Shown here one piece after another: positions 14,109 to 33,533 of a DNA stretch of 64,000 bases. The notes below the pieces were generated by a model. The model was not told the origin of the DNA, did not search any database, and saw only the letters and a program-made list of their open reading frames with translations. Made by a program: the position numbers and the translations under genes. Source of the stretch: Candidatus Poribacteria bacterium (GTDB lineage Bacteria; Poribacteria; WGA-4E; WGA-3G); contig CAXXUA010000006.1 in NCBI GenBank assembly GCA_963663765.2, positions 256,001 to 320,000 on the forward strand, written 5' to 3'. The first letter of the stretch is position 1; each line of letters begins with the position of its first letter.

Positions 14109-14885
14109 ATGTCAACCCAAAAAACAGATAAACGTTTTCAATACGTCCCAACAGATGATGCAGGTATCTACTATCCGGAAACGGATGATAGACCCTTTGC
14201 TGAATCCGACCTACACCTTATCCATATAATCGACACATACCACAGACTAAATGCTTATTATGAAGAAAGAGAGGACGTTTATGTTTCTGGGAACTTACTC
14301 ATCTATGATGTTCCCGGCAAAACACAACGTTCTATTTCTCCTGATGTCATGGTTGTCTTTGGTATTGAGAAAAAAATGAGACGCACTTACAAAACTTGGG
14401 AAGAAGGAAAAGCTCCTGACCTCGTCATGGAGTTTTCAAGTAAAACCACATATAGATCCGATCTCAATAAGAAAATGAAAAGATATGCACAATTAGATGT
14501 AAAAGAGTACTTTCTATACGACCCTGAACGCAGCTACTTAGACGATCCATTGGTTGGACTAAGACTCAATGATGATGCACAATTTGTAACAATACAACCA
14601 CAACTAAATGGTGGAATCCCATCAACTGTTTTAGGGTTAGAGTTTTATATTAAAGAAGATGATTTAGGAATTTACAATCCTACTTCAGATGAATGGCTAC
14701 CAACACCATCTGAAAAAGCAGAGAAAGAAGCTGAAGCAAGACGTCAAGAAGCACAAGCAAGAAAGCAAGCAGAACAAGCAAGACGTCAAGAAGCACAAGT
14801 AAGAAAGCAAGCAGAACAGGAAAACACACGACTTCAATCAGAAATTGAACGACTAAAAGGCTTATTAAACACAAATGAAAAATAA
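14109..14885 (+). CDS. Uma2 (DUF820) family endonuclease-like protein
   Basis: ISPDVMVVFG, PDLVMEFSS, VKEYFLYDP; coiled-coil tail. Confidence 0.88.
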   Translation: MSTQKTDKRFQYVPTDDAGIYYPETDDRPFAESDLHLIHIIDTYHRLNAYYEEREDVYVSGNLLIYDVPGKTQRSISPDVMVVFGIEKKMRRTYKTWEEGKAPDLVMEFSSKTTYRSDLNKKMKRYAQLDVKEYFLYDPERSYLDDPLVGLRLNDDAQFVTIQPQLNGGIPSTVLGLEFYIKEDDLGIYNPTSDEWLPTPSEKAEKEAEARRQEAQARKQAEQARRQEAQVRKQAEQENTRLQSEIERLKGLLNTNEK

Positions 14886-15413: not shown

Positions 15414-16169
15414 ATGTCAAACCAAAAGACAAATAAACGATTTCAATACGTCCCAACAGATGATGCAGGTATCTACTATCCGGAAACGGATGGTAGACCC
15501 TTCGCAGAATCCGACCTACACCGTATCCATATAATCGACACATATCACAGGTTAAATGCTTATTATGAAGATAGAGATGATGTCTACGTTTCTGGGAACT
15601 TACTCATCTATGATGTTCCCGGTAAAACACAACGCTCTATTTCTCCTGATGTCATGGTTGTCTTTGGTATTGAGAAAAAAATGAGACGCACTTACAAAAC
15701 TTGGGAAGAAGGAAAAGCACCTGACCTCGTCATGGAATTTTCAAGTAAAACCACATATAGATCCGATCTCAATAAGAAAATGAAAAGATATGCACTTTTA
15801 GGTGTAAAAGAGTATTTTCTATACGACCCTGAACGCAGCTACTTAGACGATCCATTGGTCGGTCTAAGACTAAATGATGATGGACAATATGTAACAATAC
15901 CACCACAACCAAATGGTGGAATCCCATCAACTGTTTTAGGGTTAGAGTTTTATATTCAAGAAGATGATTTAGGAATTTACAATCCTACTTCGGATGAATG
16001 GCTACCAACACCTGTTGAAAAAGCAGAGAAAGAAGCTGAAGCAAGACAACAAGAAACACAAGCAAGACAACAAGAAGCACAAGCAAGACAACGTGCAGAA
16101 AACGAAGTCACACGACTTCAAGCCGAAATAGAACGACTGAAAGGTCAAGTTAACAGACATGAAGATTAG
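15414..16169 (+). CDS. Uma2 (DUF820) family protein, close paralog of 14109-14885
   Basis: Near-identical sequence to the upstream paralog. Confidence 0.88.
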   Translation: MSNQKTNKRFQYVPTDDAGIYYPETDGRPFAESDLHRIHIIDTYHRLNAYYEDRDDVYVSGNLLIYDVPGKTQRSISPDVMVVFGIEKKMRRTYKTWEEGKAPDLVMEFSSKTTYRSDLNKKMKRYALLGVKEYFLYDPERSYLDDPLVGLRLNDDGQYVTIPPQPNGGIPSTVLGLEFYIQEDDLGIYNPTSDEWLPTPVEKAEKEAEARQQETQARQQEAQARQRAENEVTRLQAEIERLKGQVNRHED

Positions 16170-20015: not shown

Positions 20016-21800
20016 ATGTACTTCAATTTTATACCCATAAGCGACCTGAAAGATGAAGATCTCGTCCCGCTTGTTCAAGCTCGTGACGAAACAGCATTCA
20101 AGGAATTGATGAATCGTTACAATCCAAAAATCTGGTTTGTAGTTAACGAAAATTCAAGACAACGCCAAGATGCTGAAGAGATCCTTATGGACATCTGGAT
20201 GGCAGTTTGGGATAACATTATCGGTTTGCGAAAACCAGAAAGTTTTGGCGGTTGGTTACGCAGAATCGCACATAACGCCTGCAAAAGATACTACGCATCG
20301 GGAAAAAATCAGCATAGTGAAATACTATTAGATTACGATGAACTAACTCTACAGATTGATAGAGAAGCGGAACAACGTTTTCAAAACGCAAGACTACGAT
20401 CTGATGCAAGAGAAGCAGTACATCAACTTCCACAACGCATAGTGTCTGTCGCGAGATTATACTATCTTGAGCAGTGGAACGTCAATGAGATCGCTACTGA
20501 ACTCAACTTAGCTGTCGGTACTGTAAAGTCAAAACTCAGTGAAGTACGGAAACTGCTAAGAAAAGAATTTGAGGTTGAACCTATAAGGAGAGAAACTATG
20601 TCAGCTAACATGCAAAACAATGAAAACGAACAGAAAAAAATAAAAATTATAGGTGTTGGCGGTGCTGGATGTAACACTGTTAAACGCCTAATTGATGAAA
20701 GTTTGAGAAACACTGAATTCTATGTTGTTGATACTGATAAGGAAACCCTTAGTTCTTGCAATGAGGTGACACAAGTACAAATCGGTATAAACAATCTTAA
20801 AGGGCAAAGTACCAACGGAAACCTGGAACTTGGGAAAAGGGCAGCTGCGGAAAGTATGGATGAACTACGTACTATCGTCTCAGACGCAAATCTAGTTTTT
20901 GTAATTGCAGGTATGGGGGGAGGAACTGGTACTGCCGTTGCACCAGTTATTACTTCACTGGCACGCCAACAAAAAGCATTGACGATCTGTATGGCAACAC
21001 GTCCATTTGAAGTAGAGGGAAAACTACGCTCAGAACAGGCAGAAGAAGGGATAAGGGAACTGCACAGTAACGAGCATCCCCAAGCTGATGCAGTTATCAT
21101 TGTCCCAAACCAGCGAATACTCGATTTAGTTGACGTGGATTTACCTATACCACAAGCATATTTGGAAAGTGATGAAATTTTGGTACAAGGTGTAAGTCTT
21201 ATCGCAGAAATGGTTACACATAATGGTGAAATAAGTGTAGACTTAGAAGATATTCAATCAATACTGCAAGACAAAGGAACTGTTCTAATGAGTTTCGGCA
21301 AAGCTAATGGCGAAAATAGAGCAAGAATCGCTGCACGGAACGCAATATCCTCACCCTTATTGGAAGAGAGTAAAGTCAATGAGGAATCTGCAGTCATTGT
21401 TGGTATCGCATCTCCACCAGATTTTACCTTTCATGAATTAGATGAAACCATGAAGGAAATAGTTAAAGAAACCCCACCTGAACAGATTATGTTTGGATTA
21501 GTATATAAAAAAGAACTGGAGGCAACTGGGGAAGTGATAGTAACAATCATTTCAACAATACCTGATTCTTCTAAACAGCAAGTACTTACAATTGACACCA
21601 GTAAGGACACAGAAGCTCCCACTGATGATAAGACCGTTTCCGCATCAAAAAAACAAGAATTTACACATCAACCCAAATACAGTAATTATGATCTTTCATA
21701 TCTTATAAATCAAGTACCCGTAAATGTTAAAACAACCATTGAACAAGGTATTACTGCCACAGTAAAAAATCAACCACAGTCAGCAAAACTACAAAGTTGA
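20016..21800 (+). CDS. ECF-type sigma70 factor fused to an FtsZ-like GTPase domain
   Basis: aa 1-190: sigma region 2 (DAEEILMDIW, FGGWLRRIAHN) and region 4 (EIATELNLAVGTVKSKL); from aa 195: IKIIGVGGAGCN, AGMGGGTGTA, TRPFEVEG..R, IIVPNQRI. Confidence 0.88.
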   Translation: MYFNFIPISDLKDEDLVPLVQARDETAFKELMNRYNPKIWFVVNENSRQRQDAEEILMDIWMAVWDNIIGLRKPESFGGWLRRIAHNACKRYYASGKNQHSEILLDYDELTLQIDREAEQRFQNARLRSDAREAVHQLPQRIVSVARLYYLEQWNVNEIATELNLAVGTVKSKLSEVRKLLRKEFEVEPIRRETMSANMQNNENEQKKIKIIGVGGAGCNTVKRLIDESLRNTEFYVVDTDKETLSSCNEVTQVQIGINNLKGQSTNGNLELGKRAAAESMDELRTIVSDANLVFVIAGMGGGTGTAVAPVITSLARQQKALTICMATRPFEVEGKLRSEQAEEGIRELHSNEHPQADAVIIVPNQRILDLVDVDLPIPQAYLESDEILVQGVSLIAEMVTHNGEISVDLEDIQSILQDKGTVLMSFGKANGENRARIAARNAISSPLLEESKVNEESAVIVGIASPPDFTFHELDETMKEIVKETPPEQIMFGLVYKKELEATGEVIVTIISTIPDSSKQQVLTIDTSKDTEAPTDDKTVSASKKQEFTHQPKYSNYDLSYLINQVPVNVKTTIEQGITATVKNQPQSAKLQS

Positions 21801-29513: not shown

Positions 29514-30524
29514 TTATTTCCTATTCTTTTCTTTAGTATTCTTTTTTTGCCGCTTAGAAGGCACTTCAATTTCACCTGCGATAATCTTTGCTTTAAAATC
29601 CTCGACCTGTTTTAGGATCTCTTCAGTTAATAGCGTTTTATTATGTTCATCTACAATATATTCAATACCACCCTCTTTTAGACCGTAGTTTTTTACGCCA
29701 CCTGTGAACGTATCCGTCACAACCTTTTCAATCATTTGATATATAGACAATTCTACACCTTTAATAATGCTTGTCAATACTTGTCCAGGAATAAGATGAT
29801 TTCCGTTAGAGTCCACCCAGATAATATATTTATTTGTCTGTTTTGCAGCTTCAAGTACACCTAAACCACTTGCGCCAGCTGCTGCGATGATAACATCTAC
29901 ACCTTTATTATATTGTGCGAGTGCGAGTTCTTTTCCTTTAGCTGGATTATCAAATGCTTGTGGGGTAACACCGACATAGTTGACGAGAAGTTCTACATCT
30001 GGATTCGTATGTTTTATACCTGCGGCGAAACCGATTTCAAAAGCTTCCACCAGTGGAACTTTCATACCTCCGACGAATCCCACTTTTTTTGATTCAGTTT
30101 TTAGTGCTGCGATGACACCTGCGAGGAAAGTGCCTTCGTGTGCTTTATAAATAAGGGATGCTACGTTTGAGTGTTTTGCTTCTTCATCAATAAGTGTGAA
30201 GTTGACATTTGGGAAATCGGCAGCGACTCGGTTCATAGGTTCTTTGAATACGAAACCGACTCCGATGATGATGTCATATTTTAGTTTTGCGAGTCTTCGC
30301 ATTGCCAGTTCGTATTCAGCATTTTGTGCGGGATATATTTCAGTAAGTTTTATATCCCATTTATCTTCAGCTTTTTTTGCACCATTGTATGCTGCGTCGC
30401 AAAAAGAAAGGTCACCGCGTCCGCGCACGTTATAAATAAGACCGACTTTAACAGTAGCAGTAACATTATCGATAAATGCAAGACTCATGGTTATTATTGT
30501 TAGCAACAGAAAAAATTTTTTCAT
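29514..30524 (-). CDS. BMP-family ABC substrate-binding protein
   Basis: Signal peptide, GRGDLSF, GFVGGM, AAAGASGLG, WVDSN. Confidence 0.9.
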   Translation of the reverse strand: MKKFFLLLTIITMSLAFIDNVTATVKVGLIYNVRGRGDLSFCDAAYNGAKKAEDKWDIKLTEIYPAQNAEYELAMRRLAKLKYDIIIGVGFVFKEPMNRVAADFPNVNFTLIDEEAKHSNVASLIYKAHEGTFLAGVIAALKTESKKVGFVGGMKVPLVEAFEIGFAAGIKHTNPDVELLVNYVGVTPQAFDNPAKGKELALAQYNKGVDVIIAAAGASGLGVLEAAKQTNKYIIWVDSNGNHLIPGQVLTSIIKGVELSIYQMIEKVVTDTFTGGVKNYGLKEGGIEYIVDEHNKTLLTEEILKQVEDFKAKIIAGEIEVPSKRQKKNTKEKNRK

Positions 30525-30592
30525 TAGGGAGCACTCCGACTATTGATTTTGGATTTTTTGTATGAATTTTGACGAAGCAGCGATAAAACCAT

Positions 30593-30773
30593 ATTTGAGA
30601 TACGATCTCAAAATCAAACTGTTTATTGAGACATATTCTCAAAAACACATTCTGTATTGAGAAACGGTCTCAAAAGTTGCGAAATTGTCATATTGAGAAT
30701 ACATATCAATAACAATCTTCGTATTGAGATTTATTCTCAAAAGCATGTTTTTATTTGAGATACGATCTCAAAT
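30593..30773. repeat. Array of six TTGAGA-N5-TCTCAA palindromes
   Basis: TTGAGA at 30595, 30626, 30657, 30693, 30724 and 30755 (spacing 31,31,36,31,31); unit 4 right arm is TATCAA. Confidence 0.92.
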
Positions 30774-31081
30774 ATTGTAATTGCTGTTAATTATCCAAAA
30801 TAGAACGAATCTTTTGTGAAAATATCAAAACTTATTAATTGAAAGCTAAAAAAGAATCTCATGGTGAAAAAACGTTCATGAGAATACCAGTTGGAAAAAT
30901 GTCACATTTTTAATTAGGGATAGGAAAATTGAATAAAGATTATTAATTAGAATACACCATCGCGAAAACAAATGCAACATTTTTCGTTGGGTAGGGTTTG
31001 TAGAAAATTTTAGGTTGGGTTTAAAGGTTGGAAGAGAAGAGATGTGAAAATAACATGATAGGAAATGAAACTGTACGAGCA

Positions 31082-31117
31082 TTTAATGACGTATTGTACG
31101 TGCAAAACGTCATTAAA
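31082..31117. other. 36-bp near-perfect palindrome, candidate recombination or operator site
   Basis: TTTAATGACGTATTG-TACGTG-CAAAACGTCATTAAA, 16 of 18 pairs match, about 60 bp upstream of the recombinase. Confidence 0.6.
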
Positions 31118-31179
31118 ATGTTGGTGTGAAAAACAGAAATATGATAGAATTATCTGGTCAATATTAATGGAGAACCTTA

Positions 31180-31791
31180 ATGTCGAATTCAAGAAGAAGA
31201 AAAACACAACAACCCAGAGTCCTTGACGAAATACAACAGAGAATCATTTTAGACTCACTCAGAAATAGAGAACGCGATAGAACACTCGTACTCTTCTGTC
31301 TACGTACCGGACTTCGCAATGCTGAAGCATGTGGTATGAATATCGGGGATGTCATGAAATTCGGCAATATCGTAACGACTTTAGAAGTTCGGTCAGAAAT
31401 CGCAAAAAACAATGTCTCCAGAAGAATACCCCTCGTCAATGATGTACGAGACACATTATACGACTTCTTGGATTGGAAGTTAGAACGTAAAGAGAAAGAC
31501 GATTTAGATAGTCCCCTTTTCTGTACTCTCCGTACAAAAAATAGACTCGCCCCCCGCGACTTTCAACGTATCATGGAAGCAGCATCCGAAAACATCGGAC
31601 TCAGGTTCACACCACACGACCTGCGACATACCTTCGGCACTGAACTCTATAGAGCTACACACGATTTAGAATCTGTACGTATTGCATTAGGACACACCAG
31701 TTTAGATGCAACACTTATCTATATGCACACAAGTCCCGATATATTGCGGCAACGGTTTGAGACTGCGTTCGGTGGGCTTTCGCAAGACTAA
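31180..31791 (+). CDS. Tyrosine recombinase, catalytic domain only (203 aa)
   Basis: TGLRNAE (R), AKNN (K), HDLRH (HxxR), LGH, TLIY (Y); GGAG RBS. Confidence 0.92.
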   Translation: MSNSRRRKTQQPRVLDEIQQRIILDSLRNRERDRTLVLFCLRTGLRNAEACGMNIGDVMKFGNIVTTLEVRSEIAKNNVSRRIPLVNDVRDTLYDFLDWKLERKEKDDLDSPLFCTLRTKNRLAPRDFQRIMEAASENIGLRFTPHDLRHTFGTELYRATHDLESVRIALGHTSLDATLIYMHTSPDILRQRFETAFGGLSQD

Positions 31792-32003
31792 TATCTTCAT
31801 GTGTAGAACCTTGGCATAAGACAATTCTCTTGAAATGATTCTTAGTGTATTATCATATCAAAACGAATAAAAAAATGCGTTATACGCTAACGTGAGCATT
31901 AATTATTTTGGTGGTTTTATGAAATATACATATTTTGAATCTGCTTCATTTAAGTATAAAGTATTTGCACATTCATTTTTCCAGGATAACTTTTCATTTT
32001 ACG

Positions 32004-32032
32004 TTGACTTTTTTCCTGTTTAAGAGTATGCT
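32004..32032 (+). promoter_or_regulatory. sigma70 promoter
   Basis: TTGACT-17-TATGCT. Confidence 0.5.
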
Positions 32033-32087
32033 GTTAACCTAATCTTGTGACTCTATCAACCTATTTTTACATCTTGGACTTAAGAAA

Positions 32088-33533
32088 ATGGCATATTCCA
32101 GTTTAAGAGATTTCGTCAAAGCACTCGAAAAAGCTGGTGAACTTAAGCGAATTAATACTAAAGTATCACCGGACCTTGAAATCAGTGAGATAACGGATCG
32201 CATAAGTAAATCTGGTGGTCCTGCACTTTTGTTTGAAAATGTTGAGGGTAGTGATATGCCCTTGCTAATCAACACCTATGGGTCTTACTCACGAATGGCA
32301 ATGGCACTCGGCGTTGACGACCTGTCAAGGATAGCTTACGAGATCGAAGGTATGATCAAAATTGGTCCACCCGAATCTCTTATGGATAAGGTCAAAATAC
32401 TCCGCATCCTGTCACAACTTACGAACTTTCCACCGAAAAATGTTAAAAAGGGTGCATCTCAAGAAGTAGTATTAACAGGGGAAGAGGCTTCGTTGGATAA
32501 ATTGCCCCTGATTAAATGTTGGCCGATGGATGCTGACAAATATATTACATTGCCACAAGTATTCACACACAGTCTGAAAACTGGTCAACGAAACGTAGGC
32601 ACTTACAGATTGCAAAAGCTCAATCAATATGCTTTAGCAATGCACTGGCAGATACATCACGATGGTGCATCACATCATCGTGAATATAAGCATGCCGGGG
32701 AACAGATGCCCGTAGCTATCGCCATCGGTGGGGATCCTATCATGTCTTACATCGGCACAGCACCACTACCGTCAGGGATAGACGAACTGTTGTTCGCTGG
32801 TTTCCTCAGAAAATCAAATGTAGAAATGGTTGATGCAAAAACCATTGATATGAAAGTGCCTGCAAATGCGGACATCGTTATTGAAGGTTTCATTGAACCA
32901 GATGAAACCTGTATTGAGGGACCTTTTGGTGACCACACAGGCTTTTATTCCATGCCAGACGAGTACCCCGTTTTTAGAATCACCGCAATTACGCATCGCA
33001 AGAATCCAATCTACCAATCAATTATTGTTGGTAAGCCTCCCATGGAAGATTGTTTTATGGGGAAAGCCACCGAACGCATCTTCATGCCGCTGATAAAAAC
33101 ACAACTTCCTGAACTTGTTGATATGAATCTACCGCTATTCGGTGTGTTTCATAACTTTGCTTTAATTTCAATTGACAAACGGTATCCATATCATGCGAAA
33201 AAGATTATGCACAGTTTTTGGGGACTCGGTCAATTGATGTTTAGCAAAATCATCATCGTTGTTGACAAAGATGTAGATGTGCAGAATGTTGAAGAAGTGC
33301 TTTTTTACGTAGGTAGTAATGTCGACCCAAAACGTGATGTAACCATCGTTGAGGGACCGGTTGACGTGCTTGACCACGCTGCACCATTACTTGGAGCAGG
33401 TTCGAAAATGGGTATTGATGCAACAACGAAATGGGAAGAAGAAGGCTACCACAGAGATTGGCCCCCAGAGATAATTATGTCTGATGATATAATTGAACTT
33501 GTCAACGAAAAATGGAAAAAATACGGGTTGTAA
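32088..33533 (+). CDS. UbiD-family decarboxylase (menaquinone-biosynthesis type)
   Basis: GGPALLFENV, NVGTYRLQ, EGPFGDHTGFY, GSKMGIDAT. Confidence 0.92.
   Translation: MAYSSLRDFVKALEKAGELKRINTKVSPDLEISEITDRISKSGGPALLFENVEGSDMPLLINTYGSYSRMAMALGVDDLSRIAYEIEGMIKIGPPESLMDKVKILRILSQLTNFPPKNVKKGASQEVVLTGEEASLDKLPLIKCWPMDADKYITLPQVFTHSLKTGQRNVGTYRLQKLNQYALAMHWQIHHDGASHHREYKHAGEQMPVAIAIGGDPIMSYIGTAPLPSGIDELLFAGFLRKSNVEMVDAKTIDMKVPANADIVIEGFIEPDETCIEGPFGDHTGFYSMPDEYPVFRITAITHRKNPIYQSIIVGKPPMEDCFMGKATERIFMPLIKTQLPELVDMNLPLFGVFHNFALISIDKRYPYHAKKIMHSFWGLGQLMFSKIIIVVDKDVDVQNVEEVLFYVGSNVDPKRDVTIVEGPVDVLDHAAPLLGAGSKMGIDATTKWEEEGYHRDWPPEIIMSDDIIELVNEKWKKYGL

Follow-up and report, generated by a model that had tools for sequence, protein, structure and literature searches.

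A phased array of palindromes beside a catalytic-domain-only, Xer-like tyrosine recombinase in a sponge-associated Poribacteria genome

The 64,000-nucleotide stretch of DNA analysed here (the window; Candidatus Poribacteria bacterium, assembly GCA_963663765.2, contig CAXXUA010000006.1, positions 256,001 to 320,000) belongs to a metagenome-assembled genome of a sponge-associated member of the Poribacteria, and a sequencing run that contains part of it is labelled as a sponge metagenome. Our subject is the spacer between two divergently oriented genes, bmp and a gene for a 203-residue tyrosine recombinase. The spacer is 655 bp long and has a G+C content of 30.1%, as compared with 40.7% across the window, in agreement with an initial annotation, made from the sequence alone, that had drawn attention to an AT-rich divergent region of about 650 bp. 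Two separate elements lie in it, an array of six short palindromes on the bmp side and a single larger palindrome on the recombinase side, which we tentatively read as an operator-type array acting on bmp and as part of a separate recombination module, respectively. The features of the locus are, in the order of their positions in the window:

29514..30524, minus strand: bmp, for a Bmp/PnrA-like ATP-binding cassette (ABC) transporter substrate-binding lipoprotein (PF02608, E 4.2e-68)
30593..30774, no strand: array of six units of a 17-bp palindrome (pattern search)
30595..30679, no strand: first copy of a three-unit block, units 1-3 (direct-repeat family D1)
30693..30777, no strand: second copy of the three-unit block, units 4-6 (direct-repeat family D1)
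30949..30977, minus strand: putative bmp promoter, block A (-35 TTGCAT at 30972-30977, 17-bp spacer, -10 TATTCT at 30949-30954)
31082..31117, no strand: invariant 36-bp palindrome, block B (inverted repeat I2; in 28 of 28 loci; unique in the genome)
31121..31150, plus strand: putative recombinase promoter (TTGGTG, 18 bp, TAGAAT in the window; from a 25-locus alignment)
31180..31791, plus strand: catalytic-domain-only, Xer-like tyrosine recombinase, 203 residues (Pfam, NCBIfam, alignment, structure model)
31874..31903, plus strand: conserved hairpin flanked by an A-run and a T-run, some 85 bp past the recombinase stop codon

A search for TTGAGA-N5-TCTCAA with at most one mismatch found six units in the window (starts at 30595, 30626, 30657, 30693, 30724 and 30755, the last ending at 30771), spaced by 31, 31, 36, 31 and 31 bp exactly as first described. 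Shuffled sequences gave 0.27 matches on average, and none of 100 shuffles reached six. Unit 4 (30693) is the single unit with a mismatch, in its right arm (TATCAA), and all six units have the same orientation. The core TACGA is common to units 1 and 6, as had been noted, and the identity between these units in fact spans 21 nucleotides in direct orientation (30592-30612 and 30752-30772). The units had also been described as two symmetric triplets. The triplets are real, but the symmetry is not: the two three-unit blocks (85-98 bp) form a direct tandem duplication, 72% identical in a register of 98 bp, with no mirror arrangement, and this duplication accounts for the lone 36-bp step. The regular step of 31 bp corresponds to about three turns of the DNA helix. 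With arms read off the orthologous arrays, the unit extends to approximately TTATTGAGA-N5-TCTCAATAA.

The array has no counterpart elsewhere in the genome. The assembly as a whole (6.35 Mb, 15 contigs) holds one further exact site, within an open reading frame (ORF) of 905 residues, and the genome-wide scan called for at the outset did not find a second cluster of the motif; one-mismatch sites elsewhere number 28, against about 22 estimated from base composition, and none of them are clustered. Across 40 genomes of the genus, exact motif clusters are restricted to the bmp-recombinase locus, with scattered singletons elsewhere, and none of 15 loci with bmp paralogues or distant recombinase homologues contains a unit at up to one mismatch. 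Two genomes of the genus (G023, loci L196-L199, and G004, loci L200 and L201) carry a unit-like palindrome, TTTTGAGAATCGTTCTCAAAA, in three to four paralogous regions of about 770 bp, which are 83-87% identical and hold an open but odd-looking reading frame. Both genomes are without a unit at their own recombinase locus, and no similarity between the window spacer and the paralogous regions was found beyond the palindrome.

Selection on the array was assessed by comparison of three-unit arrays aligned from six species. Of the columns in the arms 35 of 36 are invariant (mean pairwise identity 0.99), as compared with 12 of 18 in the three-base flanks (0.84), 9 of 15 in the N5 centres (0.83) and 2 of 16 in the linkers (0.52). 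Near-invariance of the arms next to drifting linkers shows that the units are functional and under selection. The outermost half-sites are weaker (TTGATA, TATCAA), and the weakness itself is kept between species. Changes in one arm are not compensated in the partner arm, which speaks for recognition of the DNA sequence by a dimer over pairing in RNA. The comparison thus supports a description of the array as a real, selected and locus-specific set of putative protein-binding sites with strict 31-bp phasing.

Co-conservation of array and recombinase was scored in 28 species-representative loci with the recombinase gene, with unit counts (at most one mismatch) taken from the 26 that have at least 600 bp of upstream sequence. 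No unit is present in ten loci, one unit in seven, two in one, three in six, five in one and six in one, the window itself. The initial annotation treated array and recombinase as belonging together and named recombinase orthologues without the array as a refutation; co-conservation proved partial, and stands for the nine of 26 loci with two to six units, but not for the ten with none or the seven with one. Every multi-unit array has the 31-bp period, that of the window being the largest, and in the three closest species compared units have been gained or lost exactly in register. A quick bmp tree, for which the careful search is unfinished, the support is limited to the Shimodaira-Hasegawa-like approximate likelihood-ratio test (SH-aLRT) and many forks are open, places the multi-unit arrays in the two earliest-branching groups and the one-unit and zero-unit loci as derived; the ancestral form was likely the three-unit block.

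Two spacers of other kinds were seen in the same comparison. One unit-less clade (L041, L043 and L044) has tandem 17-bp direct repeats, in up to about nine copies, in place of the variable spacer, between the bmp promoter block and the 36-bp palindrome, and the half-site TCTCAAAA occurs inside the repeat unit of L041 and L044. In a genome without the recombinase (G001, locus L058), the spacer upstream of bmp is replaced by a long ORF, which we read as an inserted mobile element.

The 203-residue protein scores 103.3 bits against Pfam PF00589 (Phage_integrase; cut-off 27.1), with profile positions 3-169 of 172 aligned to residues 15-185. The catalytic residues that the protein had been said to keep, R46, K76, H146, R149 and H172 together with the nucleophile position Y181, are invariant in an alignment of 14 homologous sequences, down to 27% identity. 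An AlphaFold2 model has a mean predicted local distance difference test (pLDDT) score of 88.2 and a predicted template modelling (pTM) score of 0.82, with low confidence for residues 1-8, and its best Foldseek matches are XerA (5hxy, template modelling score 0.76-0.77 on the query) and XerH (5jjv). No core-binding domain was found, in line with the initial description: about 14 residues precede the catalytic domain by Pfam, alignments and model, and the alignments begin at residue 101-130 of XerA-type chains. XerA, XerC, XerS and XerH are the best matches by sequence or fold, and the NCBIfam equivalog cut-offs are all missed (XerA 95.4 against 220, XerC 90.6 against 335, XerS 82 against 267, XerD 72.7 against 330). 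A likeness to FimB and FimE had been pointed out, and the size does agree; the NCBIfam models of tyrosine-type DNA invertases (198-200 positions), however, gave 36.6 against 221 bits and 30.3 against 222 bits, far below cut-off. With all curated Xer, integron-integrase and invertase models far under their cut-offs, neither the recombinase nor the array fits a curated family, as the earlier failure to match the locus to a recognised system had implied. A full-text literature search found no publication pairing Poribacteria with "tyrosine recombinase".

Of 39 other genomes in the genus, 27 encode a close relative of the recombinase (78-93% identity, 198-203 residues); none was found in 72 genomes of five other genera in the family (E<=1e-20). 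In 22 of 24 named recombinase loci bmp lies divergently upstream, and in the remaining two the contig ends first. Downstream follows ubiD, either directly or after inserted DNA. This inserted DNA, seen in other species, encodes FG-GAP/ASPIC, LamG-type and TPR proteins and no mobility genes, and an origin from a mobile element was rejected. On this distribution we regard the gene as a vertically inherited, single-copy, genus-specific chromosomal gene. The genome of the window also encodes two near-identical tyrosine recombinases of 313-316 residues (C3:89337-90287 and C4:696135-697076), Cre-like by eye and probably two copies of one mobile element.

In the 25-locus alignment the block just upstream of the recombinase gene is better conserved than the coding sequence itself, and its core is the 36-bp palindrome, block B. 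Block B abuts the putative recombinase promoter, and each of the 28 recombinase loci has it, at positions from -89 to -97. Its 18-nucleotide arms are 89% complementary, and it can be read either as 14-bp arms around an asymmetric 8-bp centre, GTACGTGC, or as invariant outer arms of 10 bp set 16 bp apart; dif-type sites have arms of about 11 bp and a centre of 6-8 bp. Block B has properties of an Xer target site, being a single, palindromic, intergenic, low-G+C site adjacent to the gene. The constant element of the recombinase locus is block B, not the array.

A homologue of the recombinase with 60% identity (L074) is encoded on a metagenome contig that is G+C-rich and unrelated, where a DnaG-type primase gene is its neighbour. 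An inverted repeat at this locus has the geometry of block B (8-bp arms, separated by 14 bp), its arms being alike at 6 of 8 positions, and six exact copies of its heptamer lie between -270 and +160, as compared with 0.32 expected per strand in the 5.6-kb locus. More distant homologues from sediment have a related repeated motif near promoters. The heptamer cluster and the primase neighbour of L074 suggest that a mobile element may have been the older home of this mini-recombinase family. Because it is kept in all recombinase loci and a similar repeat accompanies the distant homologue, block B is the best candidate for the site of the recombinase; it is likely a lox- or dif-like binding or recombination site, likelier so than the array, and recombinase and block B would together make up a minimal module with a single recombinase, of the Xer/dif or Cre/lox type.

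Other partners for block B were considered and rejected. The hairpin at 31874-31903 is not a second copy (as in an attL/attR pair), with a local alignment score of 14 as compared with 22-27 for unrelated tiles of the window, and simple excision does not fit the left flank of the hairpin in recombinase-less genomes. A second AATGACGT...ACGTCATT inverted repeat (C5:348637) is a hairpin between thyA-like and dut-like ORFs (translations read, no family search) and was taken as unrelated.

On the bmp strand the spacer contains the promoter-like pattern TTGCAT-17 bp-TATnCT (block A), the hexamers and spacing of which are kept in loci with and without the recombinase. Recombinase-less loci with an intact spacer number four and fall in two clades of the bmp tree, the gene having been deleted; block B is absent from all four spacers, one of which holds an apparent degraded remnant, and all four keep block A, 45-170 bp from the bmp start. 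In one of them block A lies about 45 nucleotides from a strong bmp ribosome-binding site, which places the array of the window downstream of block A. We infer that block A is the bmp promoter, in which case the six units (30595-30771) would sit inside a bmp leader of about 420 nucleotides. A putative promoter upstream of the array that persists in recombinase-less genomes, together with an array inside the bmp leader, counts against the original assignment of the array to the recombinase. The putative promoter of the recombinase gene, recognised in the 25-locus alignment, reads TTGACC, 17 bp, TACAAT in most relatives. The hairpin past the recombinase gene, a probable terminator, is found as the same element in 27 other loci across the genus and is kept even where the recombinase gene is deleted. 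In one run, contigs of other organisms cover this hairpin at higher summed depth.

Two further ideas about the spacer were dropped. A sigma-54 promoter beside unit 1, with the array as enhancer, has a GG/GC spacing that fits the window but is lost in the two nearest relatives. None of the small ORFs of the spacer, considered as a hidden regulator, is conserved, and none longer than about 23 residues lies on the bmp strand between promoter and array.

The explanation that we favour, though tentatively, is a phased operator array for a dimeric DNA-binding protein that acts on bmp, situated beside a separate mini-Xer/dif-like module. The features expected of a phased operator are present, namely dyad sites under sequence selection, repeated with a 31-bp period downstream of promoter-like hexamers. 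The six units would be operator-type sites for a dimeric, sequence-specific DNA-binding protein, and the 31-bp spacing would put them on one face of the helix and allow bound dimers to interact cooperatively. As the array lies between the putative promoter and the start of bmp, the most likely effect would be cooperative repression of bmp, by a roadblock within the transcribed leader or by looping. A three-unit ancestor would have been duplicated to six units here and trimmed to five, two, one or none elsewhere, always in register.

Several observations weigh against this explanation. The promoter assignments derive solely from conservation. The ten of 26 loci without any unit imply that the role of the array is dispensable. 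Both recombinase-less clades (four loci with an intact spacer) lack the array as well, so that a functional tie to the recombinase may exist. No candidate regulator gene was found within about 18 kb on either side (22 neighbouring ORFs, Pfam), and the gene for a single-target factor usually neighbours that target, which points back to the recombinase. With no regulator gene nearby and no other clustered target in the genome, the recombinase therefore continues to be a candidate for the binding protein. Finally, the conservation of the N5 centres (9 of 15 columns) fits a crossover region as well as it fits an operator.

That the array instead belongs to the recombinase, as a set of accessory (architectural) or secondary core sites bound by the catalytic-domain-only enzyme, is unlikely. 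Such sites could offset the missing core-binding domain, provide topological selectivity, or form a loop to block B that encloses the bmp promoter. The recombinase is the sole DNA-binding protein encoded nearby among the neighbouring ORFs scanned; the two recombinase-less clades have lost array, block B and gene alike, or keep them in decayed form; arms of 8-9 bp around a centre of 5-7 bp fit the core site of a tyrosine recombinase; the 21-nucleotide identity of units 1 and 6 is in direct orientation; and distant homologues have clusters of short repeated motifs at their 5' ends. On the other hand, the ten unit-less loci keep an intact and equally conserved recombinase and block B. The half-site of the array differs from the arm of block B, whereas at the L074 homologue the array motif and the inverted-repeat motif are the same. 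The inversions or excisions that the initial annotation had proposed to look for were not seen either: contigs from four runs of four studies contain no joints, deletions or inversions, although contigs hide rare forms, and strain variants in two of the four runs keep the arrangement of units, including the six-unit form, over the parts covered. Nor was an inverted-repeat pair flanking an invertible promoter segment found among the inverted repeats of 30400-32200.

Less probable still is a module for chromosome maintenance in the terminus region, in which the mini-recombinase would resolve chromosome dimers at a dif-like block B and the array would serve as an accessory, fork-barrier or segregation site. 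In its strongest form, which we consider just as improbable, array, block B and the 203-residue enzyme would be one machine near the terminus, with the mini-Xer recombining sister chromosomes at block B and the array replacing the core-binding domain or giving selectivity. All five complete genomes of the genus have the recombinase gene at a distance from dnaA of 42-49% of the chromosome, but since gene order is shared among the five genomes this antipodal position amounts in effect to about one observation. Clustering of DnaA boxes of the oriC type was found beside dnaA, as this explanation would have it. A search for full-length Xer (E<=1e-35) found none in 88 good genomes of the family, the two matches being in 81%-complete genomes; in three sister families, by contrast, 13 of 16 genomes encode one Xer, of 303-329 residues. 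On these searches we take the family to live without a canonical Xer. A single-copy, intergenic, low-G+C site next to its recombinase is also the arrangement of difSL/xerS and difH/xerH in the portion of the literature drawn on here (PMC2731167).

Against a maintenance module stands the distribution of the gene: 12 of 39 genomes in the genus lack it, as do all 72 from the five other genera, which implies that there is no general necessity for it; most members of the family are thus also without the mini-recombinase, and the general presence that characterises Xer/dif is not found. The shared orientation of the six units, the many unit-less species and the lack of parA/parB-type genes among the 22 neighbouring ORFs scanned against Pfam weigh against it as well. 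Nor does strand composition mark a terminus. Cumulative GC skew, proposed at the outset as a marker for origin or terminus, has a broad minimum at the locus on the contig of the window and in one complete relative, but it is equally erratic around dnaA and tracks the coding strand bin by bin, and proved uninformative. Octamer strand skew trained on the arms around dnaA was dominated by repeats resembling repetitive extragenic palindromes (REP), and no motif flips polarity. A search with consensus patterns for a canonical dif gave no convincing site, the best candidate (contig C15) being no better than control in five complete relatives. Within 540 kb on each side of dnaA on contig C5, octamers of the REP-like repeats (CGTGCTTT, GTAAGCGC) are found strongly on one strand, e.g. 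208 against 18 and 71 against 16.

It is quite improbable that the units act as RNA, that is as a row of short hairpins (6-bp stem, 5-nucleotide loop) in the bmp leader that affect the stability or translation of the mRNA. The array does lie downstream of the putative bmp promoter and each unit can fold, but the stems are weak, the TTGATA and TATCAA changes break pairs without compensation and are nevertheless conserved, and an Rfam scan gave only a chance-level match to a snoRNA (28.4 bits against a cut-off of 55).

A neutral tandem repeat (minisatellite) or the remnant of a small mobile element, without function, is very improbable. Copy-number change in register is what slippage or unequal exchange would produce, and two genomes of the genus have a similar palindrome in their paralogous regions of some 770 bp; the contrast between near-invariant arms and 52%-identical linkers in six species, the uniqueness of the unit cluster to this locus in the genome of the window, and the likeness of spacer and paralogous regions in the palindrome only all argue against it.

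A replication origin or set of iterons is barely conceivable, for although the spacer is AT-rich, divergent and at a local minimum of cumulative GC skew of its contig, that skew follows gene orientation in these genomes, the units are palindromic in contrast to directional iterons, no rep gene was found among the 22 neighbouring ORFs scanned against Pfam, and the spacer has one DnaA-box-like 9-mer as compared with seven in 177 bp beside dnaA on contig C5, the densest such cluster in the genome, so that the locus is not oriC. Of the dedicated nucleoprotein locus first envisaged, with roles in recombination, segregation or replication, the real, phased, binding-type array by a genuine recombinase stands, a role in recombination or chromosome segregation keeps some probability, and the replication origin falls.

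The wider surroundings are unremarkable with respect to mobility: a Pfam scan of the 22 neighbouring ORFs revealed neither phage nor island genes, as the initial annotation had stated for the flanks. Further away in the window, two neighbouring ORFs on the plus strand (14109-14885 and 15414-16169) both match Uma2 (putative restriction endonuclease), and a 594-residue ORF on the plus strand (20016-21800) combines a Sigma70 region-2 domain (residues 31-95) with the Tubulin/FtsZ GTPase and FtsZ C-terminal domains, an unusual fusion.

To our knowledge, few tyrosine recombinases work without a core-binding domain, and those that do are known mainly as invertases in fimbrial phase variation. A vertically inherited, single-copy, Xer-like enzyme with a lox- or dif-like site roughly opposite the origin, in a family without Xer, would be a candidate for the smallest chromosome-acting recombinase module, and a compact recombination tool might be derived from it if the recombinase proves active. 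The natural series of 0, 1, 2, 3, 5 and 6 units at a fixed 31-bp phasing could serve as material for the study of cooperative DNA binding once the binding protein is found. Should the array be only an operator of bmp, the locus would represent ordinary, if tidy, gene regulation in an uncultured symbiont; it would be of high interest if the mini-recombinase acts on block B, or if the array takes part in its reaction.

Among known systems, DNA invertases of the FimB/FimE type have about 200 residues, consist of little more than the catalytic domain, and work beside a promoter region. The present recombinase resembles them in its size, its catalytic domain alone, the nearby promoter and its weak matches to invertase models, but it differs in the scores of those matches (36.6 and 30.3 bits against 221 and 222), and the locus lacks an inverted-repeat pair round the promoter and, in the contigs, an inverted form. 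Centromeres of the sopC type of the F plasmid are tandem direct repeats, each with a short palindrome, in variable copy number, and one unit may suffice. Unlike sopC, the array is at a chromosomal locus with no parA/parB-type genes nearby, and many species have no unit.

The boxes bound by NrdR are described, in the part of the report drawn on here, as pairs 15-16 bp apart (bioRxiv 10.1101/2024.05.27.596032). Both there and here, dyads of 16-17 bp recur at about three helical turns, as for dimers on one face of the helix, and as at phased enhancer or operator sites more widely; the array differs from NrdR boxes in its motif, in having up to six sites instead of two, and in having a single target locus instead of a regulon.

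Lineages without canonical XerCD may carry a single recombinase of their own, with XerL of the Legionellales and the Arch1, Cyan and Cand subgroups as examples in the portions of the reports used here (PMC9765430; PMC8138268). The family of the window is likewise without full-length Xer, but those enzymes have both the core-binding and the catalytic domain and occur throughout their lineage, whereas the present one is catalytic-only and belongs to part of one genus.

The closest comparison is with XerS/difSL of streptococci and lactococci and XerH/difH of Helicobacter and Campylobacter, in which, according to the sections of the two reports drawn on here, one recombinase is encoded beside a single palindromic, intergenic, low-G+C site (PMC2731167; PMC2965235). 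XerS and XerH have about 350 residues and a core-binding domain, as compared with 203 residues and the catalytic domain alone; their sites are 28-31 bp long, as compared with 36 bp for block B; the present gene, which 12 of 39 genomes in its genus lack, scores far below the cut-offs of the Xer models; the present locus has at most a suggested position at the terminus; and a phased palindrome array accompanies the recombinase only here. What the locus has in common with both systems is a palindromic site that abuts an Xer-like gene and would form one genetic module with it.

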